Part shown: piece by piece, positions 152-64,000 of the stretch | Position numbering within the stretch: the first letter of the stretch is position 1 | Layout of the letters: each line of letters opens with the position of its first letter | Assembly: GCA_044234625.1 (NCBI GenBank) | Contig: JBIIIP010000001.1 | Span: forward strand, 52,497 to 116,496 | DNA: 64,000 bases | Direction of reading: 5' to 3' | DNA from: Pirellulales bacterium | GTDB lineage: Bacteria; Planctomycetota; Planctomycetia; Pirellulales; UBA1268 | Notes under the pieces: generated by a model | What the model saw: the letters and a program-made list of their open reading frames with translations, nothing else | Told to the model about the DNA's origin: nothing | Databases searched by the model: none | Translations under genes and position numbers: made by a program

Positions 152-223
152 TCCCCGATAGCTCAACGGTAGAGCGGCCGGCTGTTAACCGGTAGGTTGT
201 AGGTTCGAATCCTACTCGGGGAG
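152..223 (+). tRNA. tRNA-Asn (anticodon GTT), no encoded CCA
   Basis: Acceptor stem TCCCCGA (152-158) pairs with TCGGGGA (216-222), discriminator G at 223. D-loop AGCTCAACGGTAGAGC, anticodon loop CTGTTAA, T-arm GTAGG-TTCGAAT-CCTAC. Folded by eye. Confidence 0.9.
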
Positions 224-309
224 CTTTCTCCGCATGGTGCCGCAACGGCTCACATCGAGCCGCACCCAGCATCGTCGATTCACTGGCGGGTTATGCGCAG
301 GGCGTGCAG

Positions 310-51758: not shown

Positions 51759-53792
51759 ATGTCTGTGATTGCCGCAGATTCGGTTTCGGTTGAACATCTC
51801 GATCAGCCTGCTGCCGAGCCGGCCGCGATAATCCCTCCGGCGACGGTGAAACTCGAGCTTGGGCTACGGCTGCAGATCATGGCCACGCTCGTGGGCGGCA
51901 CGCTGCTGTTGTGCGCGTTGCTTGCCGGCTGGCTCTGGAACCAGCCGCTCTTCCCGGCGATTCCCGCGGTGATTTCCGTCATCCTCCTGGCGACGCCGCT
52001 GGTGGTGGCCGCCGCTCGCGATCTCATCGCCGGCAAAGCAGGAATGAACGCCCTGGTGGCACTGGCCGTGATCGGGGCCGTATCGAGCGGAAAGTACCAG
52101 GAGGCTGCGGCGGTCGCCTTCTTCATGATCGTTTCGTCACTCATCGAAAAACGGACAGCGGCGGGGGCAGAGGCAAGCATCGAATCCCTGATCAGGCTCG
52201 CGCCGACGAAGGCCAGCCGCCTGGTGGAGACGCCCCACGAGGGCACCCGCGAGGAACTCGTCGAGGCCACCGCGCTGCGGCCCGGCGACACGGTCCGCGT
52301 CCGGCCTGGCGACACGATCCCGGCAGACGGCGTCGTCTCCCGCGGGGCGAGCACCGTGAATCAGGCAAGCGTCACTGGGGAATCGGTTCCGGCCGAAAAA
52401 ACAGCCGGCGACGAGGTTTTCGGCAGCACGATCAACCTCACCGGCGTGCTCGATATCCGCGTCACCAAGGCGGGGGCCGACACGCTGCTCGGCCGGGTGA
52501 AGGAACTCATCCTGCAGGCCGAACGCACCAAGACGCCGATCATGCGGCTCGTCGATCAATATGCCGCGTGGTACACGCCCACGATCCTGATGCTCGTGGG
52601 GGTGGTTCTGTTTTTTGCCTTGAAGAACACGCCCGAATCGGCCTTCGATCGGGCCATCGCCATGCTCGTCGTGGCCTGCCCCAGCGCCCTGATCCTCGCC
52701 ACACCCACGGCGATGGTGGCGGCGCTGTCGGCGGCCGCGCGGCTCGGCGTGTTGATCAAGAGCGTCGCCACGCTGGAGGCCGCCCGCAACCTGACCGCCA
52801 TCGTGTTCGACAAAACAGGCACCGTGACGACAGGCGTGCTCTCCGTCACGAAGCTGGCTCCGGCCGAGGGAACGGACGCAGGAGACCTGTTGAGATGGGC
52901 GGCATCTGCCGAACAGGACAGCCGCCACCCGGTTGCCAGGGCCGTCACCGACATGGCGCGGCGGGCCCGCGTGCCGCTCGAGACGGCGGACCGTTTTGAG
53001 GAGGTGCCCGGCCGGGGCGTGATGGCGACGTTCGCTGACGGAGCCACCGTGCTCGTCGGCCGTGCCTCCTGGCTTACCGAGACCGTGCTCCCCGGCGAAG
53101 GCTTCGACGCGGATGCCCTGGAGGCGGTGCAGGTGTCGTCGGAAGCCGAGGGATTGTCGGTGCTCCACGTCGTCCGCGACGGCCGCTCCGTCGGCTGGAT
53201 CGGCCTCGAGGACAACGCCCGCCCTGAAGCGGCGGGCGCCGTTGACCGCCTCAAGACGATGGGCATCTCCCGGCTGGTACTGCTCACCGGCGATCGCAAG
53301 AGCGTGGCCAAGCGGGTGGCCGGCCAGATGCATTTCGATGACTTCAAGGCCGAGGTGCTGCCGCACGAGAAACTCGAGATGGTGGACGAACTCAAGGCCA
53401 CCGGGCACCACGTCGCCGTCATCGGCGATGGCGTGAACGACGCGCCGGCCCTCGCGGCGGGTGACGTCTCGATCGCCATGGGGGCCGCCGGCAGCGACGT
53501 GGCCATCCACTCGGCAAGCATTGCCCTGCTCAACAGCAACCTCGACCGCATCCCCTTCCTCGTCGAACTCTCACGGCGCACGATCGCCGTGATCCGCCAA
53601 AATATGCTCATCGGCGGGTTGTTCATCGTCGGCTTCATGTCGCTGGCCGGGGCCGGCTACGTGTCACCCGTCATGGCGGCGCTCCTCCATGTGGTGAGCG
53701 GCCTGGCCGTGGTGTTCAACTCGGCAAGGCTGGTGCGGTGTGGCGAGGATCTCGAGCAGGCCGAGGCGGGCCTCGCTCGGCCGCAGCCTTGA
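51759..53792 (+). CDS. Heavy-metal-translocating P1B-type ATPase without N-terminal metal-binding domain
   Basis: TGES, transmembrane CPS (VVACPSALILATP), DKTGTVT, SRHPVA (HP motif) and GDGVNDAPAL. GAGGAG upstream of the ATG at 51759. Confidence 0.9.
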   Translation: MSVIAADSVSVEHLDQPAAEPAAIIPPATVKLELGLRLQIMATLVGGTLLLCALLAGWLWNQPLFPAIPAVISVILLATPLVVAAARDLIAGKAGMNALVALAVIGAVSSGKYQEAAAVAFFMIVSSLIEKRTAAGAEASIESLIRLAPTKASRLVETPHEGTREELVEATALRPGDTVRVRPGDTIPADGVVSRGASTVNQASVTGESVPAEKTAGDEVFGSTINLTGVLDIRVTKAGADTLLGRVKELILQAERTKTPIMRLVDQYAAWYTPTILMLVGVVLFFALKNTPESAFDRAIAMLVVACPSALILATPTAMVAALSAAARLGVLIKSVATLEAARNLTAIVFDKTGTVTTGVLSVTKLAPAEGTDAGDLLRWAASAEQDSRHPVARAVTDMARRARVPLETADRFEEVPGRGVMATFADGATVLVGRASWLTETVLPGEGFDADALEAVQVSSEAEGLSVLHVVRDGRSVGWIGLEDNARPEAAGAVDRLKTMGISRLVLLTGDRKSVAKRVAGQMHFDDFKAEVLPHEKLEMVDELKATGHHVAVIGDGVNDAPALAAGDVSIAMGAAGSDVAIHSASIALLNSNLDRIPFLVELSRRTIAVIRQNMLIGGLFIVGFMSLAGAGYVSPVMAALLHVVSGLAVVFNSARLVRCGEDLEQAEAGLARPQP

Positions 53793-53799
53793 TGGCGGC

Positions 53800-54765
53800 T
53801 CAGCCGACGTCGCGGGTCTGGAAGAGGATCACGGCCAGGCTCATGACCGCCCCGACAAGGCAGGCCGCATAGAGAGTCACGGCGCCGAGATAGCCGAGCG
53901 TGATCACGCTCCCCTGAGTGAGGGCATCGGCCGGCCAGAAAAACTGCAGGTTGGGCACGACTGCCGCGAGCGGCCGCAGCCAGGCCTGGCCCGCGACCAC
54001 CAGCGACAGGAAATATTCACCGACCAGCCCCACGAGGAACACGCCGATGCAGACCAGGAGCGTGGCCACCTGGCCGAGCCGCGTCGAGGCGGCGATGGCA
54101 ATCGCCGTGAGCACGAGAACGGCCTCGAACACGAGCACGATGCCGATCATGAGCTGCGGGTCGAAATCCACAGCCGGACTCTGCAACCGCCAGCTACGGC
54201 TGACGCACGACACGATTCCCCAAGCTGCCGTCGCCAGCGCCGCGCCGGAGACCGTGAACGTGGACGGAAAAGGCCAGCGGTACAGGTAATTCGTCAGCCC
54301 TGCGATCAGGAACGTGATCAGAGCCGCGAGCAGCCCGAAGGTCACCACCGGCGGATCGAATATGTCCTCGGCCCGCACACTCGACTGCACGCGGTGGCGA
54401 ACCGTGAGCAGGAACACCAGCGACAAGAGCCAGTAGGCGATCGCGATCGCGGCCGCGACGCCGATGAACTTTCCCAACACCACCTGCATCCGCGCCACCG
54501 GCTTGCTGACCACCGTGAGCACGGTCTTGTTTTCGATCTCACGGGCGAGCACGCTGGTGGCAGAGAAGGCAGCCATGAGCAGGCCCGCGAGAAACAGGGT
54601 GCTCAGCCCCAGATCGATGAGCAGCTTGTTGTCGTCCTCGAGCGTGTAGCCGGCGACATTCACGTTGAGCAACAGGGCCAGCAAGGCCCCGCAGATGAGC
54701 ACGGCGTGGACCGGCTGACGGATCGATTCCAGGAAGGCATTTCGAGCGATGGTGAAAAGGGGCAT
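53800..54765 (-). CDS. ABC-2 type transporter permease
   Basis: MPLFTIARNAFLESIRQPV start and EIENKTVLTVVSKPVARMQVVLGKFIG motif, with multiple TM helices. Transcribed divergently from the SPFH/ABC operon. Confidence 0.7.
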   Translation of the reverse strand: MPLFTIARNAFLESIRQPVHAVLICGALLALLLNVNVAGYTLEDDNKLLIDLGLSTLFLAGLLMAAFSATSVLAREIENKTVLTVVSKPVARMQVVLGKFIGVAAAIAIAYWLLSLVFLLTVRHRVQSSVRAEDIFDPPVVTFGLLAALITFLIAGLTNYLYRWPFPSTFTVSGAALATAAWGIVSCVSRSWRLQSPAVDFDPQLMIGIVLVFEAVLVLTAIAIAASTRLGQVATLLVCIGVFLVGLVGEYFLSLVVAGQAWLRPLAAVVPNLQFFWPADALTQGSVITLGYLGAVTLYAACLVGAVMSLAVILFQTRDVG

Positions 54766-54931
54766 GGCAGACTTCCGAAGCGTGGCCTCGTTGTACGCCA
54801 TGAAGCATGAAAAAACGATGAGCGTGCAGCCATTTGCTAGATTCCCGTGAGCAGCCATGGAACGGCGTGGGGCGGCAGCCTAGACTCGTGAATGTGGGTT
54901 GTTCACGCCGGTTTTTTCCTCCATTCTCGTC

Positions 54932-56986
54932 ATGAACCCGGACAGAACTGACACGAGGCGAAGGGCTGCGGAAAACGACTCGCTCGTTTTTCGCCGGGCC
55001 CAAACCGCCGCCTTCTCCGGGCTTGCCGTCCAGGTTTTGCTGGCCGGTGCGATGGGGCTTGTGGCCCTCTGGGGCGACAGCCAGGCACTCTATGCCGCCG
55101 GCTGGCACATGCTGGGTGGTCTTCCGATCTGGATCGTGCTGGTTCTCATCTACCAGCATCACGAAAGCGAGCGCGTGCAGCGGCTGGCGGCCGAAAAACT
55201 CACCGATACGAGCAAGAAGGCCGCCATCTTCGGGTCGTTGAGCGACGACCTCGACGCCGCCCGGGAACGATTGGACCGTCTCTATCGTTACGGACTCCCG
55301 ATCGTGAGCGCCACCGTGGCGGTGTATCTGCTGGCTGCCGGGGCCGCCCTGCTTTACGTCCGTATCAAGGCCTTTGCCGATGTGGATTCGACCGCCACGA
55401 ATCTTGCCACGGCATGCGACCCGGTAGGCCTGATGTTCGTCACGGCGGGTATTGCCTTCACCGCCTTTGTGACGGCCCGCTGGATCAGCGGGTATGCGCG
55501 CCAACGCGCATGGCAGTTACTACGCGGCGGTGCCAGCTACCTGATGAGCTGCTTCGTCGTGGCGTTGTTGCTTTTCGCCGGGGCGGCGATCGTTGCTGCC
55601 GGCGGTGATGCGCGGGTCTTCGGCTGGCTCGCCACAGCGATCCCGGCCGTGATGATTCTCGTTGGCCTTGAGATCCTGCTTACGTCGTTGCTCGAGTCCT
55701 ATCGCCCGCGGATTCCGGGTGAAATACCCCGTCCCGCCTTCGACAGCCGGGTGCTCGGGCTGCTCACGGCCCCGGAGTCGCTCGGGCGGGTGGTCGCTGA
55801 AACGATCAGCTACCAGTTCGGTGTGGAAGTGTCCCGGAGCTGGCTGTATCAGCTCCTCGGTCGCGCCGTCACGCCACTGACGCTGCTCGGGGCCGGCGTC
55901 CTCCTCGCCCTCAGCTGCTTCGTCTTGGTGGGGCCTGATGAACGCGGCCTCGTGCTGCGCTTCGGTGGCATCTTCGGCGATCCCCTCCCCCCCGGCCTCC
56001 ACCTGAAATGGCCGTGGCCCCTGGAAACGGCCGAATTGCATCCCGTCGGCCAAGTCCAAGAGGTGCTCGTTTCCAGCGACCTTACCGGGCGATCGCCCGA
56101 TTCCCCTGCCATCCTGTGGACGAGCGACAGCGACAGTGATGAGGCAATCGGCCAAGAGGATTTCGTGACGGCCCCAACCGCCGCCAGTGAAGGCACGGGC
56201 GTGGCCTTGGTTGCTGCCGACGTCATCGTTCAGTACGCGGTCGGGGACATCAGCGACTATGCGAGCGGCGGGTCAGATCCCCGGCTCCTGCTCAAACTGG
56301 TTTCCCAGCGGGAAGTTTCCCAGTATTTCGCCGCCCATGACATCGACACCCTGCTCGCCAACCCGCGCAGCCAAGCCGGTCTGCAGATGAGACAGGCGAT
56401 TCAGTCGCGGCTCGACGCCATGGGACTGGGCCTACGGATTGTCGGGGTGTCCATTACGGCACTGCATCCACCCATCGGCCGTGTGTCCCGGGCCTTTCAC
56501 TACCAGATCGGTGCGGTTCAGCAGCGCGAGACGAGCATCCAACAGGCGCGCAAACAGGCTGTTGTGGAATTGGCAAAGGTGGCCGGCTCGGTCGATTTGA
56601 GCCAGCGGATCGATGCAGCCATCCGACGGCTCGACGCCCAGCGCACGGCTGGACAGGCGCGAGAGGCCGCCGCCACGGAGACGGAGATCGACCAGCTGCT
56701 CGCCAGCGCGCGAGGCGAGGCGGCTGAACTGGTGCATCAGGCCCGTGCTTATCGCTGGCAACGGGCCGTGGGTGAAACGGCCAGTGGTGAACGTTTCTCC
56801 GGCGAACTGCTCGCCTATGAGGCTGCACCGCTGTACTACCGCACCCGTCGCTTTCTCGACGTCTTGGCGGAAGGACTTACCGGCCGCCGAAAATTCGTCA
56901 TCACGGAAGACGCCGGCGACGCACCGGTGTTTCGCATGGATTTCAGCGACCCCACTTCGGCGATCGATACGCTACTCGCCGAATGA
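54932..56986 (+). CDS. Polytopic membrane domain fused to SPFH/band-7 (HflK-like) domain
   Basis: About 330 aa containing roughly 7-8 hydrophobic helices. Then DERGLVLRFGGIFGDPLPPGLHLKWPWPLE, VIVQYAV, GLRIVGVSITALHPP, and a long coiled-coil-like Ala/Arg/Gln-rich tail. Confidence 0.75.
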   Translation: MNPDRTDTRRRAAENDSLVFRRAQTAAFSGLAVQVLLAGAMGLVALWGDSQALYAAGWHMLGGLPIWIVLVLIYQHHESERVQRLAAEKLTDTSKKAAIFGSLSDDLDAARERLDRLYRYGLPIVSATVAVYLLAAGAALLYVRIKAFADVDSTATNLATACDPVGLMFVTAGIAFTAFVTARWISGYARQRAWQLLRGGASYLMSCFVVALLLFAGAAIVAAGGDARVFGWLATAIPAVMILVGLEILLTSLLESYRPRIPGEIPRPAFDSRVLGLLTAPESLGRVVAETISYQFGVEVSRSWLYQLLGRAVTPLTLLGAGVLLALSCFVLVGPDERGLVLRFGGIFGDPLPPGLHLKWPWPLETAELHPVGQVQEVLVSSDLTGRSPDSPAILWTSDSDSDEAIGQEDFVTAPTAASEGTGVALVAADVIVQYAVGDISDYASGGSDPRLLLKLVSQREVSQYFAAHDIDTLLANPRSQAGLQMRQAIQSRLDAMGLGLRIVGVSITALHPPIGRVSRAFHYQIGAVQQRETSIQQARKQAVVELAKVAGSVDLSQRIDAAIRRLDAQRTAGQAREAAATETEIDQLLASARGEAAELVHQARAYRWQRAVGETASGERFSGELLAYEAAPLYYRTRRFLDVLAEGLTGRRKFVITEDAGDAPVFRMDFSDPTSAIDTLLAE

Positions 56987-57026: not shown

Positions 57027-57953
57027 ATGAAAAATTCATTCATCGTCCTGATGGGAGTGGTCCTCGTCGGACTGCTTCTCTCCCACATGTTTTTCTACCA
57101 GGTCCGTTATGACCAGGTGGCCGTGCGGACGACTTTCGACAAGGCGGACGAGTCGAGTGTGCAGGAAACCCCCGGCCTGAAGTGGCGGTGGCCGTGGCCG
57201 ATCAACAAGGTGGCCCTCTACTCGAAGCGGTTGCAGGTGCTCGAGGACAAGATCGAGGAGTTGCAAACGGCCGACGGCAAGAGCGTGATCGTACGGACGT
57301 ATCTGACGTGGCGGATCGCCGACCCGCTCGCGTTCTACGTCACGCTCAAGGATCCTGCCGAGGCGGCCCGGCAGCTGTCATCGCGGCTGCGCGAGATCCG
57401 CAGCCTCATCAGCAGTTACCGTTTTGACGAGTTGGTCAACACCGACAAAGCGAAGATCAAGCTGGCGGCCATCGAGGAGGAGGCGGCCCGGTCGCTCGAC
57501 GCAGCGCTTTCGCAGGCGGACTACGGCATCCGCGTGGAAAGCGTCGGCATCCATAAGATCATCTTGCCCGAGGCGACGACGGAGAAAGTATTCGAAACGA
57601 TGATCGCCTCCCGGGAGCGGCTCGCCGAAAACGCCCTCCAGGAAGGACAGGCGCAGGCTTCCGCCATCCGCAGCGAAGCCGCCAGCGCCCGCGAGCGCAT
57701 CCTTGCCTTCGCCGAACGCCGGGCTCAAGCCATCCGCTCACAGGGCGATCGGGAAGCGGCCGTGCAGTACGGAGCGTTCGCCAAGAACGAAGAATTCGCG
57801 ATCTTCCTCCGCAAGATCGACGCCCTGCGAAAAATGCTCGATCACAACACGACATTCGTCCTCTCGGCCGATAGCCTCGGAATCTTGGATTGGTTCACCA
57901 AGGACCCGGCGGCGGCCCGGCAGCCGCGCAAGCCCGCCGCCGCGACGCCCTGA
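57027..57953 (+). CDS. SPFH/band-7 protein (HflC-like)
   Basis: N-terminal TM helix. QVAVRTTF...PGLKWRWPWPINKV, VIVRTYLTWRIADPLAFY, GIRVESVGIHKIILPE, and a helical tail. Confidence 0.8.
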   Translation: MKNSFIVLMGVVLVGLLLSHMFFYQVRYDQVAVRTTFDKADESSVQETPGLKWRWPWPINKVALYSKRLQVLEDKIEELQTADGKSVIVRTYLTWRIADPLAFYVTLKDPAEAARQLSSRLREIRSLISSYRFDELVNTDKAKIKLAAIEEEAARSLDAALSQADYGIRVESVGIHKIILPEATTEKVFETMIASRERLAENALQEGQAQASAIRSEAASARERILAFAERRAQAIRSQGDREAAVQYGAFAKNEEFAIFLRKIDALRKMLDHNTTFVLSADSLGILDWFTKDPAAARQPRKPAAATP

Positions 57954-57969
57954 TCCGACGGACCCAATC

Positions 57970-59232
57970 ATGCAACCATCCGATCGACAGCCGCCCGATT
58001 CAGCGTTAGCCCTTGACCCGGCCCAGCAGTCCCTCGCCGAGGCTTTGAGGGTGGGGTTTGGGATCCTCAAGCTGGCGATGGTCGCGCTCCTGGTCGCTTA
58101 CGCGGCCAGCGGCATCTTCTCCGTGGGCTCCAACGAGGTCGCCCTCCGCTTGCGATTCGGCGACTACGTGGGTGGCCCCGGGAATCGCGTCCTCGAACGG
58201 GGAACGTATTTCGCGGCGCCGTTTCCGTTCGAACAGGTCGTCAAGGTCGACACGCGACCAGCCACGCTCGTGCTGGACGACGAGTTCTGGTTCGAAACGA
58301 GCAAGGAGGAAAGTGGCCTTTCCAGAACCCAACTCCAAGGCCGCAAGGGTCTACCCCTCCATCCACTCCGGGATGGCTCCCTGATCACGGGAGATTCCAA
58401 CATCGCCCATGCCAAGTGGACGCTCACCTGGCGGGTCATCGACCCCGTTGCGTTTCTCACCAATGTCGGCACGAAACCCTTGGCAACCGACATCGTCCGG
58501 CTCGTCGCCCAGCAGGGCATCGTCCAGGCCGTGGCCCAATTGGGGGCGGAGGACTTTCTCCGCGGCATCGTGAACCGTGATCTTGCCGTCGGGATCATGC
58601 AACAGCGGCTCGACGAAATGCGGACGGGTCTGGTCGTCGATCAGTTGACGCTCGACAAAGTATCCGCGCCGATGGCGGTCGCCCGCAGTTTCGATGCCGT
58701 GACGAGTGCCGAAAGCGATCGTGCCGGCAGGATCGTTGCCGCGGAACAAGAGCGGGCCAGGATTCTTGGGGAAACGGCCGGGGAGGCCACCCCGAAACTT
58801 CTCGTGATCCTGTCGCAATACGAACAGGCAACGGAACGAGGCGATGCCGCGGCCGCAAGCGCGATCTGGGAGACGCTCGACGCTGCGTTCTCCAATCTGG
58901 GCGTCGGCGACACGCCGATCGGTGGTGAAGTGGCCCGGATTGTCAACTCGGCGAAAACCTACCGCACGCAGGTGGTGGAGCGCGTGGCGACGGAGGCCCA
59001 GGCCTTCCAGCAACTCCTCCCGCAATACGAGCGAAATCCGCGGCTGGTGATGGCAAAACTGTGGGAGGATGCCCGGGAAACCATCCTCACCGGCGATGTG
59101 GAAACCTTCTACACCGTGCCCGGCCAACTCGAATTGCAGCTCAACCGCGATCCTGAACTTCAGAAGGAACGTCAGCGAGAACAGCTGAAGGCCCGGAAGA
59201 AGTCCCAGCGGGAAGCCAATTCCAACCGATGA
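57970..59232 (+). CDS. SPFH/band-7 protein (HflK-like)
   Basis: TM helix, NEVALRLRFGDYVG..RGTYFAAPFPFEQV, AKWTLTWRVIDPVAFL, GLVVDQLTLDKVSAP, and a long helical tail. Its stop overlaps the ABC ATPase start. Confidence 0.8.
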   Translation: MQPSDRQPPDSALALDPAQQSLAEALRVGFGILKLAMVALLVAYAASGIFSVGSNEVALRLRFGDYVGGPGNRVLERGTYFAAPFPFEQVVKVDTRPATLVLDDEFWFETSKEESGLSRTQLQGRKGLPLHPLRDGSLITGDSNIAHAKWTLTWRVIDPVAFLTNVGTKPLATDIVRLVAQQGIVQAVAQLGAEDFLRGIVNRDLAVGIMQQRLDEMRTGLVVDQLTLDKVSAPMAVARSFDAVTSAESDRAGRIVAAEQERARILGETAGEATPKLLVILSQYEQATERGDAAAASAIWETLDAAFSNLGVGDTPIGGEVARIVNSAKTYRTQVVERVATEAQAFQQLLPQYERNPRLVMAKLWEDARETILTGDVETFYTVPGQLELQLNRDPELQKERQREQLKARKKSQREANSNR

Positions 59233-60293
59233 AACAACCCTTTCAAGGACGACCAGACGTGGCGACCGAGGACCACCGGGAGGAAGCGGTCATCGACATC
59301 GCATGTGCCGGCGTGACCAAGGTCTTCCGCGACTTCTGGATGCGTCCGCGGGTGCATGCGGTCACGGACCTTGATCTGGAGGTTCACCGCGGCCAGATCT
59401 ATGGCCTCCTCGGCCCCAACGGTTCCGGCAAAAGCACAACTATCAAGATGCTCCTCGGGCTGTTGCAGCCTTCGAGCGGCCGCATCGCCGTGCTGGGTAA
59501 ACGCCCGAAAGACGTCGATGTCAAGCAACACATTGGCTATCTCCCCGAGGAATCCTACCTCTATCGCTTCCTGACGGGCCGCGAAACGCTCGAGTACTAC
59601 GGGCGGCTCTTTCGCCTCGAGCGCAAGGCCCGGCAGGAGAGAATCGACATGCTGCTCGACATGGTCGGGCTGGATGCCGTTCAGGACCGCCCGGTAGGCG
59701 AGTATTCCAAGGGCATGCAACGACGGATCGGCCTGGCGCAGAGTTTGATCAACGATCCTCAGCTGCTGATTCTTGACGAGCCCACGAGCGGCATGGACCC
59801 GGTGGGCGCGCGACAGATCAAGGACCTCATCGCGATGTTGGCGAAGCGGGGCAAGACCGTCTTGCTGTGCTCGCATCTGCTTGCCGACGTCGAGGATCTC
59901 TGCGACCGCGTGGCGATCATGTACGGCGGCCAGGTTCGCGCGGAGGGGACATGTGGCCAACTGCTCGAGGAGGAGCATGCGACACTCCTGGAGACCAGTG
60001 AAATGCCGGAGACGGTGCTCGCGGAGGTGCGGGCTGTCCTCGAGCGACACGCCTTGGTGATGAAGCATGTGCAGCGGCCGCGACGCAAGTTGGAAACACT
60101 CTTCATGGAGATCGTCGAACAGGCCAGGGCGGAAGGTATGCAGACGTCCGGGGCAAGGAGCGGCGGGGCGATGGCCGAGTTTCTCACCACCGAGGAGCGG
60201 TCTACCGTTGACGACGCCGGAGTGGACGAGCGGCTCCTTGACCGTCTCGTCCATGAACGGCAGCCCGCGACACCTGCAGCGCAGGAGCGGTGA
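59229..60293 (+). CDS. ABC transporter ATP-binding protein (ABC-2/DrrA-like) with C-terminal extension
   Basis: Walker A GPNGSGKST, Q-loop, signature YSKGMQRRIGLA, Walker B LLILDEPTSGMD, and H-loop CSHLL. Confidence 0.9.
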   Translation: MKQPFQGRPDVATEDHREEAVIDIACAGVTKVFRDFWMRPRVHAVTDLDLEVHRGQIYGLLGPNGSGKSTTIKMLLGLLQPSSGRIAVLGKRPKDVDVKQHIGYLPEESYLYRFLTGRETLEYYGRLFRLERKARQERIDMLLDMVGLDAVQDRPVGEYSKGMQRRIGLAQSLINDPQLLILDEPTSGMDPVGARQIKDLIAMLAKRGKTVLLCSHLLADVEDLCDRVAIMYGGQVRAEGTCGQLLEEEHATLLETSEMPETVLAEVRAVLERHALVMKHVQRPRRKLETLFMEIVEQARAEGMQTSGARSGGAMAEFLTTEERSTVDDAGVDERLLDRLVHERQPATPAAQER

Positions 60294-60296
60294 CTC

Positions 60297-62030
60297 ATGG
60301 CCATTCGCTCCGACCCCTCGGCCGATCTGCCCGCCGACGAGCCAGCTGCACCGTTTGCTCGGCCGTTCCTCGATCCGGAAAATCTGCGGCCCAACTTGCT
60401 GCGCAGGCTGAAGCCCACGGTGTTCCTCGTGGCGGCTGCAATCGCCGCCGCGGCATGGTGGCTCGGCTACCCGGCTCCGGCCATCGCCATCGGTGGCGCC
60501 ATGGCGTTGGCGATCGGTTTCACCATCGGCCTGTCGGCCTTGCGAATGCTCCTCTCCGCGAGCCATCCGATTGTTGCCGTCGCGCGGGCGATCGTCGAGG
60601 AATCCGTCGGCTCGCGACTTTCGATTCTGCTGTTGACTTTGGTTCTCGTGTCGCTCCCCGTGTTGCCGCTCGTGCTCGATCCTACGGAACGGCTCGCCTA
60701 CCGGACACAGTTTTTCCTCGACTGGTCGCTTGCGGGTGTCAGCACACTGCTCAGCGTGCTCACCATCGCCTTGTGCTGCTCGAGCATCTGCGGAGACATC
60801 GATCGCCGCCACATTCACATGACCCTGTCGAAGCCGGTGCGTCGCTGGGGCTATCTGTTCGGCAAATGGCTGGGGGTGATCCTCCTCGACGCCATGCTTG
60901 TGGCCCTCGCCGGGACGGGAGTCTTCATCTTCGCGATGGCCATCAGCGCATCGCCGGCGGTGGACGATGCCGACCGCCGTGCCGTCAACGAGCAGGTGCT
61001 GACGGCCCGCATCGCGGCCAGGCCGGTGCACCCGCGGCGCGAGGAGTTCGAGAAGTCCGTCGCGGTCGCCATCGACGCCATACGTAAGGATGATCCCGCC
61101 CTGTTCGACAAGGATCCCGACAGGGCAAGGAAACGGATCCTTTCGCAATACGTGCACGCCTGGCACATGGTCACGGCCGACGTCGTCTCCAGCTACGTCT
61201 TCGAGCATCTCGACCGGGATCGGATCGGAGCCCCGGTCATCCAGTTGCGTCTGGAGCCGTTTTCCAACAACTCTGCCACCAGTGAAAGCGAAGTGCGGTT
61301 CGCGCTCTGGTTGAACGAGCGCCCCTATCCCGTCCGCGATGGAATCCATGAAGACTACGAACTGCCCGCCAATCGCATCCACACCATCGAGCTGCCGACA
61401 TCCGCGATTGCCGAGAACGGCACGCTGCGGCTCACGATCGCCAATCGCAATCGGGTGATGCCGGGGGACGACGTGCCGACCGTGATTTCCTTCAATCCCG
61501 GAGAGGGCTTGGAGGTGCTCTACCGGGCCGGCACGTTTGCCACAAACTTCATCAGGGGCATCCTCATCATGTGGGCGAAGTTGGCCATGCTCGCCGCCAT
61601 TTCGGTCGCCGCGGCATCCTGGCTCGGCCTGCCCGTGGCCATGCTCACCGCCTTGATGGTTTTCGCGACCGCCGTTGGAAGTGCCTTTGTGGCCGATGCC
61701 ATCGACATCTACACCGGCATCGACCTCGCGGAGCCGACGCTCTCGTCGATGCTGCAATTGCGGGGAGGGCTGCTGCTCGAACGGATCTTCAAGCTCGAGT
61801 GGTGGGAAGCGGCCAAGACGATGGGAGCCTACCTTGCCGACCTGTTCCTCCTGCTGGTGCCATCTTTCGGCGACTATGACTCGGTCACGCAGCTTGCCAC
61901 CGGGCGACTCATCCCACTTCGCGAGTTGGCCACCGCCCTCGTCGAACTGGGTCTCTTCTATCCGGCGGTGTCTCTCGCCATCGGCTGGCTGCTGCTGGAA
62001 AACCGGGATCTCGTGAGCTCGCCGTCATGA
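60297..62030 (+). CDS. Large ABC-2-like permease with about 200-aa extracytoplasmic insertion
   Basis: IHMTLSKPVRRWGYLFGKWLGV motif, shared in type with the 53800-54765 permease. Hydrophobic helices flank a soluble segment (about residues 230-440). AGGAG upstream of the ATG. Confidence 0.65.
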   Translation: MAIRSDPSADLPADEPAAPFARPFLDPENLRPNLLRRLKPTVFLVAAAIAAAAWWLGYPAPAIAIGGAMALAIGFTIGLSALRMLLSASHPIVAVARAIVEESVGSRLSILLLTLVLVSLPVLPLVLDPTERLAYRTQFFLDWSLAGVSTLLSVLTIALCCSSICGDIDRRHIHMTLSKPVRRWGYLFGKWLGVILLDAMLVALAGTGVFIFAMAISASPAVDDADRRAVNEQVLTARIAARPVHPRREEFEKSVAVAIDAIRKDDPALFDKDPDRARKRILSQYVHAWHMVTADVVSSYVFEHLDRDRIGAPVIQLRLEPFSNNSATSESEVRFALWLNERPYPVRDGIHEDYELPANRIHTIELPTSAIAENGTLRLTIANRNRVMPGDDVPTVISFNPGEGLEVLYRAGTFATNFIRGILIMWAKLAMLAAISVAAASWLGLPVAMLTALMVFATAVGSAFVADAIDIYTGIDLAEPTLSSMLQLRGGLLLERIFKLEWWEAAKTMGAYLADLFLLLVPSFGDYDSVTQLATGRLIPLRELATALVELGLFYPAVSLAIGWLLLENRDLVSSPS

Positions 62031-63925
62031 CTGACCGGGCCACGATGACGATCGCTTCCCTCTGTCTGGCGGGATGCCTCGCCGGATCGTCCGGCATCGC
62101 CGGATACGTGCAGCAGTACCGACGCGATTTACGGCTCGTGGTCACGACCGAAGGCACTGAGGGCATGCCGGCTCACGTCGCCGTGGTGACGGCGGCACTG
62201 GGCACGTTTCGCGGGCTTGCCGTCGATCTCCTGTGGGCGCGGGCCGAGCACCTGCAGACAGAAGGGGAATTCTTCGAGGCCCAGACGTTGAGCCAGTGGA
62301 TCACGACGCTCCAGCCTCGCTTTCAAAAGGTCTGGGCATTCCAGGCCTGGAACCTTGCCTACAACATCGCGGCAGCCACGCAGGTGCCGGCTGAGCGGTG
62401 GGCGTGGGTGAGCCGTGGCATCGACTTGTTACGAAGCCGCGGAATCCCGCTCAATCCACAGGCAGCCAATCTGTATTTCGAGTTGTCGTGGATCTTCCAA
62501 AACAAGATCGGCCGCGTCGGCGACAAGCAGCATTGGTATTACAAGGCGCGTCTGGCCCGTGAGATGCAGGAATTTCTAGGCGACCTCACCAGTGGCCGCA
62601 CCACCGACGAGGCCATCGACCGCTTCCGCACCATCGCCGACGCCCCCGCGACGTTGGAGGAACTCCGGGAAAAAGTGCCTGCGGTGAAGACTGCACTCGG
62701 CCTACTGGCCGATCATGGGGCAGCGCCGGACGAACAAACGCTTCGCATGCTTGGCCGCGTGCTCATGGTCTCCAGTTCCCTGGATGCCAAGTTGCTCGGC
62801 GCCGACTCGACACCACCCGGAACGAACACGGGGTTGTTGGCCGCCTTGCAATCTGATCGCCAGGCTGCGGCCCTGTTTTTCGACCATGTGGTTCCGTTTC
62901 TGCAGAAGCGAATCCTCGAAGACCGCTACCGCATGAAGCCGGCCGCCATGCTTGCCTTGATGGAAAAATATGGGCCGCTCGATTGGCGGCATCCGCACGC
63001 GCATGGCATCTTTTGGTCGGAGAAAGGGGTGGAGGTTGCCCGCACGGCCTTCCGCCGGGAGAGCATCAACGAGTTGATGCTCGTGCGCACACGGCTCTTG
63101 ATGCTCATGGAACTGATGCGTTCGGGCCGCGTCGATCTGGATGCCGTCACCAACCGGATCGACCTTCTTCCCGACCCGCGTTTCGCGCGGGAGTACGAGC
63201 AGGCGATCCAGGAGGCCTTCGACCTCGTGGCATCCGATACGGGGATTTCAGCCGCCGACTTCGGAAATGCCGAGGAAAAGGACCTGTACGACACGTACGA
63301 AAAGTTCCTGAACGTCGCGACGATGCTCACCTTTCTGTACGGTGACGAGGCGGAGGCCGTGCGGTATTTCAACATGCTGCGGGAATTCGTCACGAAACGA
63401 GGCTATGGAGACGAGCCGGTCTACTCCGATACGCTGCAGAACTTCGTCGCCATGCGGTTTTCCGGCGCCGTGAAGGTGAACCTCTCCGACTTGCGACAGT
63501 TTCTCGACGCCATGATCCGGCGGTCGTTCGTCGAAGGCCTGGCGAAAGGAGACTTGCGGGTCTTCAACCGGTATCTGGGCATAGCCTTCACGGTTTATGA
63601 CAAACGGTTCTCCGTCACCGACCCCAACGCCCGCTTCATCCTCGAGGACGCTAAACTCGCAGACTTCCCCACGCTCGTCGGCAACTCCTTCGAGTCCGTG
63701 ATGAAGGACACGGGCATGCCCATCTTGACCCGGGCGCGGATGTGGGCCTGGGCTCCCGACAAGATCAAGCGGGCCGTTCACGCTTCCGTGGCCGAAGTGC
63801 TTCAAACCCAGGCTCAGGCTGCCGGACTCGATCCAGCGCGGGCCTTCCCGCCGCCTGCCGCGGAACGGGAGTCGCCCGAGGCGGGAACGACTTCGGATGA
63901 AGACAGCGTACCACCAGCGAAGTGA
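62027..63925 (+). CDS. Hypothetical 632-aa helical protein, N-terminal lipobox-like LAGC / TM segment
   Basis: ATGA overlap with the permease gene. Trp/Phe-rich N-terminal block (WARAEHLQTEGEFFEAQTLSQWITTLQPRFQKVWAFQAWNLAYN). I recognise no family. Confidence 0.6.
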   Translation: MTDRATMTIASLCLAGCLAGSSGIAGYVQQYRRDLRLVVTTEGTEGMPAHVAVVTAALGTFRGLAVDLLWARAEHLQTEGEFFEAQTLSQWITTLQPRFQKVWAFQAWNLAYNIAAATQVPAERWAWVSRGIDLLRSRGIPLNPQAANLYFELSWIFQNKIGRVGDKQHWYYKARLAREMQEFLGDLTSGRTTDEAIDRFRTIADAPATLEELREKVPAVKTALGLLADHGAAPDEQTLRMLGRVLMVSSSLDAKLLGADSTPPGTNTGLLAALQSDRQAAALFFDHVVPFLQKRILEDRYRMKPAAMLALMEKYGPLDWRHPHAHGIFWSEKGVEVARTAFRRESINELMLVRTRLLMLMELMRSGRVDLDAVTNRIDLLPDPRFAREYEQAIQEAFDLVASDTGISAADFGNAEEKDLYDTYEKFLNVATMLTFLYGDEAEAVRYFNMLREFVTKRGYGDEPVYSDTLQNFVAMRFSGAVKVNLSDLRQFLDAMIRRSFVEGLAKGDLRVFNRYLGIAFTVYDKRFSVTDPNARFILEDAKLADFPTLVGNSFESVMKDTGMPILTRARMWAWAPDKIKRAVHASVAEVLQTQAQAAGLDPARAFPPPAAERESPEAGTTSDEDSVPPAK

Positions 63926-64000
63926 TCCGAATTCGATGCACCACGCCGAGCGGACCGGTCCGGAGAACGCGCCACACTGGTTGACGGCGGCTCTCGTGGG

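Follow-up and report, generated by a model that had tools for sequence, protein, structure and literature searches.

Several membrane systems are known in which a transporter or another machine works with a dedicated partner protein. GldG, together with GldA/GldF, forms the gliding-associated ABC-2 type ATP-binding cassette (ABC) transporter of Bacteroidota, and NosD/NosL accompany NosFY in the ABC-2 complex for the maturation of N2O reductase. LapB/YciM of E. coli is a membrane-anchored cytoplasmic tetratricopeptide repeat (TPR) protein working with FtsH. The present analysis deals with a stretch of 64,000 nucleotides from a Pirellulales bacterium of the Planctomycetota (GenBank assembly GCA_044234625.1, contig JBIIIP010000001.1, positions 52,497 to 116,496, forward strand), called the window below, and with the gene near its 3' end, which encodes a protein of 632 amino acids directly after a large ABC-2 permease.

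The analysis revealed that this protein, referred to as the solenoid protein, belongs to a newly recognised, conserved, unnamed and phylum-wide TPR-like family, probably accessory to an ABC-2 transporter. What the analysis shows is the existence of the family, the class of its fold and the pairing with the large permease, which is invariant. The role as a periplasmic subunit of the transporter is the reading that we favour as probable.

The gene and its protein family

The features of the gene and of the encoded protein are as follows.

62027-63925 (stop codon included), + strand: gene of the 632-amino-acid membrane-anchored TPR/HAT-like solenoid protein, from the open reading frame (ORF), homologs and AlphaFold2 model
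62027-62030, + strand: ATGA overlap of the start codon with the stop codon of the permease (TGA), in the sequence context TCATGA
62045-62110, + strand: N-terminal membrane anchor, hydrophobic core at residues 7-28 inside the modelled helix 4-34, from hydropathy and AlphaFold2
62168-62260, + strand: second hydrophobic segment, residues 48-78 (P-x-H-V-A..T-A-A-L-G-T-F-R-G-L-A-V-D..L-W-x-R), from alignments and AlphaFold2
62201-62581, + strand: most conserved block, residues 59-185, Trp/Asn-rich, membrane-adjacent and TPR-like, from the conservation of 142 sequences
62927-63028, + strand: second conserved motif, residues 301-334 (Y-x-M..M..G-P-L-D319-W-R-H-P-x-x-H-x-x-Y/F-W..G), from family alignments
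63128-63169, + strand: sole beta element, a hairpin at residues 368-381, in both AlphaFold2 models
63845-63856, + strand: C-terminal F-P-x-P motif, residues 607-610, from family alignments
63857-63922, + strand: acidic tail rich in Pro, residues 611-632, of variable sequence and with low model confidence

The ORF starts with ATG, and its GC content at third codon positions (77%) is typical for coding sequence, the whole window having 67% GC. Together with the thousands of homologs, this value indicated that the ORF is not a chance one. An earlier reading of this DNA, made from the sequence only, had claimed that the start codon overlaps the stop codon of the permease, and the ATGA listed above is exactly such an overlap. 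The genes for the protein SPFH3, the ABC ATPase, the permease and the solenoid protein are packed with successive junctions of -4, +3 and -4 nucleotides. The scan for promoters and terminators gave signal counts not above those in shuffled sequence. A perfect 12-nucleotide palindrome, CGGACCGGTCCG, lies at 63951-63962, 26 nucleotides 3' of the stop codon; it has no trailing T-run and the terminator scan was silent at that place. The window stops 75 nucleotides beyond the stop codon.

At least 424 close homologs, with 57-94% identity, were found in metagenome-assembled genomes (MAGs) of Planctomycetota, all annotated as 'hypothetical protein'. An exhaustive profile search gave 2,658 clusters (50% identity) at E<=1e-3, 873 of which were at E<=1e-30, and every named cluster seen was a Planctomycetota 'hypothetical protein' of Planctomycetia or Phycisphaerae. 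The protein had been described as an orphan; with this number of homologous clusters it is not one, though the family carries no name. The members with a name belong to Planctomycetia/Pirellulales, Phycisphaeraceae, Phycisphaerales and Sedimentisphaerales. Two of them are cultured and completely sequenced: Poriferisphaera sp. WC338, with its locus in CP194516.1, and strain ZRK34. Judged from the named members seen, and setting aside a weak tail of matches, the family is probably confined to Planctomycetota. Several MAG records having the Planctomycetia-type cluster are labelled 'Candidatus Kuenenia' or 'Chitinophagaceae' (L007, L010, L023, L026, L028, L068 and others), and one homolog bears two labels, Pyrinomonadaceae and Phycisphaerales. 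Such records look like mislabelled or contaminated bins. A few MAG labels of other phyla are at odds with those of the same or related sequences and look like binning errors.

The Pfam and NCBIfam searches, and the searches of PDB sequences with the single sequence and with a full-length profile, gave no family match, which is in agreement with the earlier statement that the protein could not be placed in any family. In Pfam there was no match at E<=0.1, and the lone NCBIfam match, to a lipid A acyltransferase model, scored 13.6 bits against a cut-off of 398 and was taken as noise. The models for the GldG auxiliary component, NosD, LptC and MCE/MlaD were unmatched, and Pfam gave no family for the protein or for 70 homologs apart from TPR models. 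The cluster look-ups for the family returned unnamed metagenomic singletons only, and the literature on SPFH proteins with ABC transporters in Planctomycetes yielded no description of this cluster. PADLOC defence models gave generic P-loop matches for the ATPase only and none for the solenoid protein, the permeases or the SPFH proteins; the reading of the cluster as an anti-phage defence system was rejected on this outcome.

Conserved motifs

Conservation was analysed for 142 sequences with 26-53% identity to the solenoid protein, and for a wider set of 70 sequences. The conserved residues of the block 59-185 are G59, R62, W70, W103, W108, N109, N113, E123, R124, W125, W127, R136, N143, P144, K160, D166, Y172, K173 and G185. 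The Trp/Phe-rich block noticed earlier at about residues 70-170, which holds 8 Trp and 6 Phe, is thus the best-conserved region of the family even at this low identity. D319, N113, W103, W127 and N143 are 100% conserved in the 142 sequences, and D319, N113 and W127 are invariant in the wider set as well.

In the second motif, D319 is followed by R321, which is near-invariant otherwise and is replaced by Ala in the second copies that lack SPFH genes (the two aligned, L055 and L059). The F-P-x-P motif occurs in members from Planctomycetia and Phycisphaerales and not in the shorter Sedimentisphaerales-type members. Residues 600-632 contain 7 Pro, 7 Asp/Glu and 3 Lys/Arg, a composition that bears out the acidic and Pro-rich C-terminal tail described before. 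Two peptide motifs of the protein alone retrieved 220 confirmed loci from species-representative genomes, so the expectation that this gene would be a good handle for the system proved right.

Predicted fold

The first AlphaFold2 run used an alignment of close homologs and gave a predicted local distance difference test score (pLDDT) of 75 with the conserved block poorly modelled; it was superseded by a second run on a diverse alignment of 96 sequences with 26-72% identity. The second model reached a pLDDT of 91.5 and a predicted template modelling score (pTM) of 0.87. It consists of the N-terminal helix 4-34, a short linker and then about 28 helices forming a solenoid of ~590 amino acids. The remainder of the protein had been predicted by eye to be all-helical, and the model, with about 30 helices and one beta-hairpin, is in good accord with it.

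The Foldseek search of PDB with both models revealed no match at E<=1e-3 and no specific relative. The top matches were all of the TPR/HAT type, namely the TPR domain of OGT (1w3b), the HAT domain of SART3 (5ctq) and Tom71 (3lca), with probabilities of 0.89-0.94. The structure search suggested in the sequence-only reading therefore produced only a weak TPR/HAT likeness and no confident match to a known family. The one recurrent Pfam signal points the same way: TPR_14 matches 26 of the 70 family members (best E=7e-6), at about residues 69-108, and TPR_2 matches 7; a precomputed PF13428 match exists on three database homologs. The profile of the conserved block gave as its best PDB match the TPR protein TTC21B, a weak one (E=0.019), whose alignment passes the typical TPR positions 'l-N-P ... 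L-y-x-e-L ... Y-Y-K-x-x-L-A'. The protein is thus probably a divergent TPR/HAT-like solenoid without a specific known relative.

Conservation of gene order

The neighbouring genes in the window are listed below.

60297-62030, + strand: large ABC-2 permease, 577 amino acids, ABC2_membrane_2, from Pfam and topology prediction; invariant upstream partner of the solenoid protein
59229-60293, + strand: ABC ATPase, 354 amino acids, DrrA/GldA/NodI-like; 4 nucleotides at its start are shared with the end of SPFH3, and 3 nucleotides separate its end from the permease start
57970-59232, + strand: SPFH3, a Band_7 protein similar to HflK, with one membrane helix at the N-terminus; the start was moved to the ATG at 57970
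57027-57953, + strand: SPFH2, a Band_7 protein similar to HflC, with one membrane helix at the N-terminus; the start was moved to the ATG at 57027
54899-56986, + strand: SPFH1, Band_7 protein of 695 amino acids, from Pfam/NCBIfam and topology
53800-54858, - strand: small ABC-2 permease, 352 amino acids, ABC2_membrane_2, divergently transcribed, from Pfam and comparison of loci
51759-53792, + strand: P1B-type heavy-metal P-type ATPase with a CPS motif, from ORF translation and profile models

A total of 86 related loci were compared, 84 of them with upstream DNA. The large permease lies directly upstream of the solenoid gene, on the same strand, in 84/84 of these. The distance between the two genes could be taken from 73 loci: they overlap in 17 (16 with the same -4), are 0-20 nucleotides apart in 29 and 21-120 in 25, so that 46 of the 73 junctions are overlaps or gaps of at most 20 nucleotides. 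The constant pairing and the tight junctions support the claim that the gene belongs with the transporter. The pairing is kept in Phycisphaeraceae, Poriferisphaera and Sedimentisphaerales, and the gene upstream of the most divergent member (535 amino acids) still matches the permease at E=6e-23.

In 59 loci the SPFH trio, the ABC ATPase, the permease and the solenoid gene were all present, and this full arrangement recurs in Phycisphaeraceae and Poriferisphaera; the homologs thus adjoin the large permease in all loci with upstream DNA and the SPFH trio commonly. The link to SPFH genes, by which the gene had been assigned to an SPFH/ABC operon, holds as a frequent neighbourhood but is looser than was implied, as in five MAGs a different contig holds a second copy of the module that has no SPFH genes. 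Four SPFH-less loci show the small permease (- strand) followed by ATPase, permease and solenoid gene (L052, L055, L059, L070), and three have the permease and the solenoid gene only, with no adjacent ATPase (L036, L051, L085), the most divergent family member being among them.

Among the 59 loci with the full arrangement, a P-type ATPase is within reach in 37 and clearly lacking in 6; neither the second copies nor Poriferisphaera have an adjacent one. In a Sedimentisphaerales MAG (L086 4391-6319) it is part of the operon, where it separates the SPFH genes from the ABC genes. This position and its presence as a frequent neighbour in most lineages suggest that the P1B-type ATPase is functionally linked to the SPFH/ABC block. 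The invariant core is the permease-solenoid pair, and the SPFH proteins and the P-type ATPase are frequent but dispensable companions.

The genes downstream vary by lineage (multi-span methyltransferase-like protein, aldose epimerase, TsaD, UvrD-like helicase), so the solenoid gene is the last conserved gene of the block; in this sense it does end the operon, as had been claimed. The next gene in many Pirellulales-like relatives encodes a multi-span protein of 757 amino acids with a C-terminal methyltransferase-like domain weakly matching Methyltransf_24. It is sometimes preceded by the gene of a 276-amino-acid protein, whose C-terminus looks, in our own reading, like a PEP-CTERM sorting signal. 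This region was noted in L081 (11990-15090) and similarly in about 25 related loci, such as L001 (from 12030).

Further features of the neighbouring proteins

The large permease has two extra N-terminal membrane helices and a Cys-free loop of 194 amino acids (residues 223-416) between membrane helices 3 and 4. This loop is flanked by a Lys/Arg-rich cytoplasmic loop and membrane helix 4, is predicted to be periplasmic and has no Pfam match. The BLAST alignment suggests that the shorter Sedimentisphaerales-type permease (457 amino acids) is apparently without the two extra helices. The small permease is a distant paralog of the large one and probably the second membrane half of the transporter.

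The N-terminal domain of SPFH1 (54899-55930, + strand) has about 7 membrane helices and no Pfam match. HflK-like proteins normally have one membrane helix, and SPFH1 is unusual in that respect. Among the profile models, the P1B-type ATPase scores above the cut-off for generic heavy-metal ATPases (TIGR01525, 539.8 bits) and for the Cd family, not for Cu, and its membrane motif, read from the translation, is CPS and not CPC or SPC. A tRNA-Asn (GTT) gene at 152-224 (+ strand) is the sole RNA-family match in the window.

Membrane anchor and predicted orientation

A strongly hydrophobic N-terminal helix is universal in the family, with a mean Kyte-Doolittle value of 2.2. A further hydrophobic stretch, also noticed before, is present at residues 48-70 with values of 1.3-1.7. 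As a second membrane helix it was rejected: the confident model shows a helix-break-helix at the invariant Gly59, and with a near-invariant Arg in it the segment is unlikely to span the membrane. In the model, residues 48-78 would rather form the start of the solenoid or a segment on the membrane surface.

The charges flanking the N-terminal helix were calculated for 322 members. The mean was +1.75 for the N-flank, whereas the 15 residues that follow the helix averaged 0.0; the N-side was more positive in 248 members, and by the positive-inside rule this gives an N-in/C-out orientation. The domain of ~583 amino acids contains 0.11% Cys across the family and none in 179 of the 322 members. In the window, the SPFH domains and the 194-residue permease loop have no Cys, and the cytoplasmic ATPase has 1.13%. 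From flank charges, Cys depletion and permease topology, the large soluble domains of the cluster (solenoid, SPFH and permease loop) appear to be periplasmic. For the solenoid itself this is probably so, as far as sequence statistics can indicate.

Proposed role as an accessory subunit

We favour, as the more probable reading, that the protein is a single-anchor inner-membrane protein (N-in) with a periplasmic TPR/HAT-like solenoid, acting as a dedicated accessory subunit of the adjacent ABC-2 transporter. The transporter would be a heterodimeric ABC-2 system composed of the ABC ATPase, the 577-residue permease and the divergently encoded 352-residue permease. By analogy with LptC on LptB2FG, NosD on NosFY and GldG with GldAF, the block 59-185 may dock on the permease from the periplasmic side, where the 194-residue loop domain is a possible contact. 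The distal, more variable part of the solenoid (residues ~190-610, including the D-W-R-H motif) could be a platform which receives, holds or hands on the extruded cargo, or alternatively it could couple the ATP-driven movements of the permease to a periplasmic partner. In most genomes the transporter would work beside three HflK/HflC-like SPFH proteins with SPFH domains predicted to be periplasmic; since second copies of the module lack them, these proteins are taken as accessory.

Several points weigh against this assignment. The mirror-tree test with eight proteins from 26 loci failed to single out the permease as the partner: r was 0.851 for the permease, 0.845 for SPFH2 and 0.843 for the P-type ATPase, and partial r did not exceed 0.25. 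The orientation is derived from the positive-inside rule and the Cys depletion, and in the window protein itself the flanking charges, counted from the sequence, are tied. As regards the fold, the Foldseek matches are weak (E>=4.5e-3, template modelling score <=0.23), and the window protein matches no TPR model at E<=0.1. Many positions of the block called 'invariant' are also those of the general TPR consensus and may therefore be structural rather than part of an interface; the Trp/Asn cluster of the block exceeds that consensus.

The cell envelope of Planctomycetota is unusual and its genetic basis is mostly undescribed, and the present family is phylum-wide and strongly conserved. It marks a transporter module otherwise hard to distinguish from generic ABC-2 systems. 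Since its gene is tightly linked to those of three SPFH proteins, the module may offer a testable example of SPFH proteins assembling in the service of a transporter and not of a protease. As cultured carriers with complete genomes exist, purification of the complex is feasible. Even if the protein is an ordinary exporter accessory, it defines a new family, a candidate Pfam entry, with clear signature motifs.

Alternative explanations

A wider proposal takes the block as one Planctomycetota-specific envelope machine, in which an SPFH cage on the periplasmic face would enclose or gate the transporters instead of the FtsH protease, and the solenoid would link the transporter to the cage or to outer envelope layers. 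We regard it as doubtful. The other four explanations, an adaptor like LapB, an enzyme, a metal-handling partner and a lipoprotein, are less likely than the accessory subunit.

An N-terminal anchor followed by TPR-like repeats, with HflK/HflC-like genes in the same operon, would also be expected of a cytoplasmic adaptor like LapB/YciM, recruiting clients to the ATPase or to an SPFH-controlled protease. This is unlikely, as in 248/322 members the flank charges speak for N-in/C-out, and the Cys content of the domain is low, like that of the predicted periplasmic domains of its neighbours. No gene for FtsH or another protease was present among the called genes of six related loci, and the second copies lack the SPFH genes altogether.

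There is an equally small chance that the protein is an enzyme with a new active site, formed by D319, R321, H326 and the Trp/Asn-rich groove, which modifies or cleaves an exported substrate, possibly a glycan or lipid. The five fully conserved residues, at 26-53% identity, are more than a scaffold usually needs, and two single homologs gave very weak matches to GH15 and to the C-terminal domain of glucodextranase (E 0.15 and 0.024). However, these hydrolase matches are isolated and do not recur, and Foldseek gave TPR/HAT solenoids only and no enzyme fold. The candidate site itself is not kept, R321 being Ala in second copies and H322/H326 variable, and the conserved set is partly TPR consensus.

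Somewhat less probable still is a periplasmic metal-handling partner of a NosFY-like transporter, the solenoid passing on metal delivered by the P1B-type ATPase. The P1B-type ATPase adjoins the block in 37/43 loci where this is visible and is inside the operon in the Sedimentisphaerales MAG; both permeases match ABC2_membrane_2; and close homologs have many Met, His and Trp residues in the motif 301-330. A metal site in this motif was nevertheless rejected as a family feature, as M303, M312, H322 and H326 are replaced in divergent members. Moreover, the solenoid has no Cys, the Pfam scan found no NosD- or NosL-like protein, and second copies and Poriferisphaera do without an adjacent P-type ATPase.

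The least probable explanation, a signal peptidase II signal with the mature protein lipid-anchored at Cys17 and otherwise soluble in the periplasm, is very unlikely: MTIASLCLAGC (residues 7-17) does contain the lipobox-like L14-A15-G16-C17 (62066-62077) noted earlier, and this fits [LVI][ASTVI][GAS]C after a short positively charged N-region, but the pattern occurs in just 24 of 187 family members, 85 of the 187 have no Cys before helix 2, and the hydrophobic helix runs about 11 residues beyond Cys17 within one continuous helix 4-34 (pLDDT 89-97). As the lipobox is not conserved in the family, the N-terminus is a membrane anchor and not a lipoprotein signal.

Comparison with known systems

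The arrangement resembles that of GldG, in which the gene next to that of an ABC-2 permease likewise encodes an auxiliary protein, anchored in the membrane and with a large domain in the periplasm. Against the GldA model the ATPase of the window scored 193.6 bits, and the two permeases gave weak matches to GldF. However, the GldA/GldF scores are far under the cut-offs, and the solenoid protein has no GldG-family match and is an all-alpha solenoid with a single anchor.

In the Nos system also an ABC-2 transporter drives a periplasmic partner, a small partner gene follows the permease gene, and NosY is a member of ABC2_membrane_2, the Pfam family matched by both permeases here; the frequent neighbourhood of a metal-pumping P1B-type ATPase adds to the likeness. 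The proteins themselves differ: NosD folds as a beta-helix, NosL is a lipoprotein of small size, and the present one is an alpha-solenoid of 632 amino acids. No nos genes were found in the operon or among the called genes of the six related loci, and the candidate metal ligands are not conserved.

LptC of LptB2FGC is likewise a single-span accessory subunit; its N-terminal helix and membrane-proximal domain sit on an ABC transporter whose two permease halves differ, and receive the extruded cargo. Its periplasmic domain is a beta-jellyroll. The present permeases are of the ABC-2 type, and the window ATPase, with 149.8 bits, stays below the LptB equivalog cut-off of 240. CcmI/CycH and YfgM share the plan of an N-terminal anchor followed by a periplasmic TPR-like domain, acting as chaperone or adaptor beside a membrane translocation machine. 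No sequence similarity to them was detected; they are far smaller than the present protein, which is paired with an ABC-2 transporter and not with the Ccm or Sec machinery.

As for the SPFH proteins, SPFH2 and SPFH3 resemble HflC and HflK in size, in the single N-terminal helix and in their best NCBIfam models. Their scores are below the equivalog cut-offs (127.2 against 134.4 and 86-94 against 159.4). The block further differs from HflK/HflC-FtsH in its third SPFH protein with about 7 membrane helices and in the lack of FtsH among the called genes of the six loci. Since none of LptC, NosD and GldG is a sequence or fold relative, the solenoid protein may be said to work like these partners rather than to be a member of their families.

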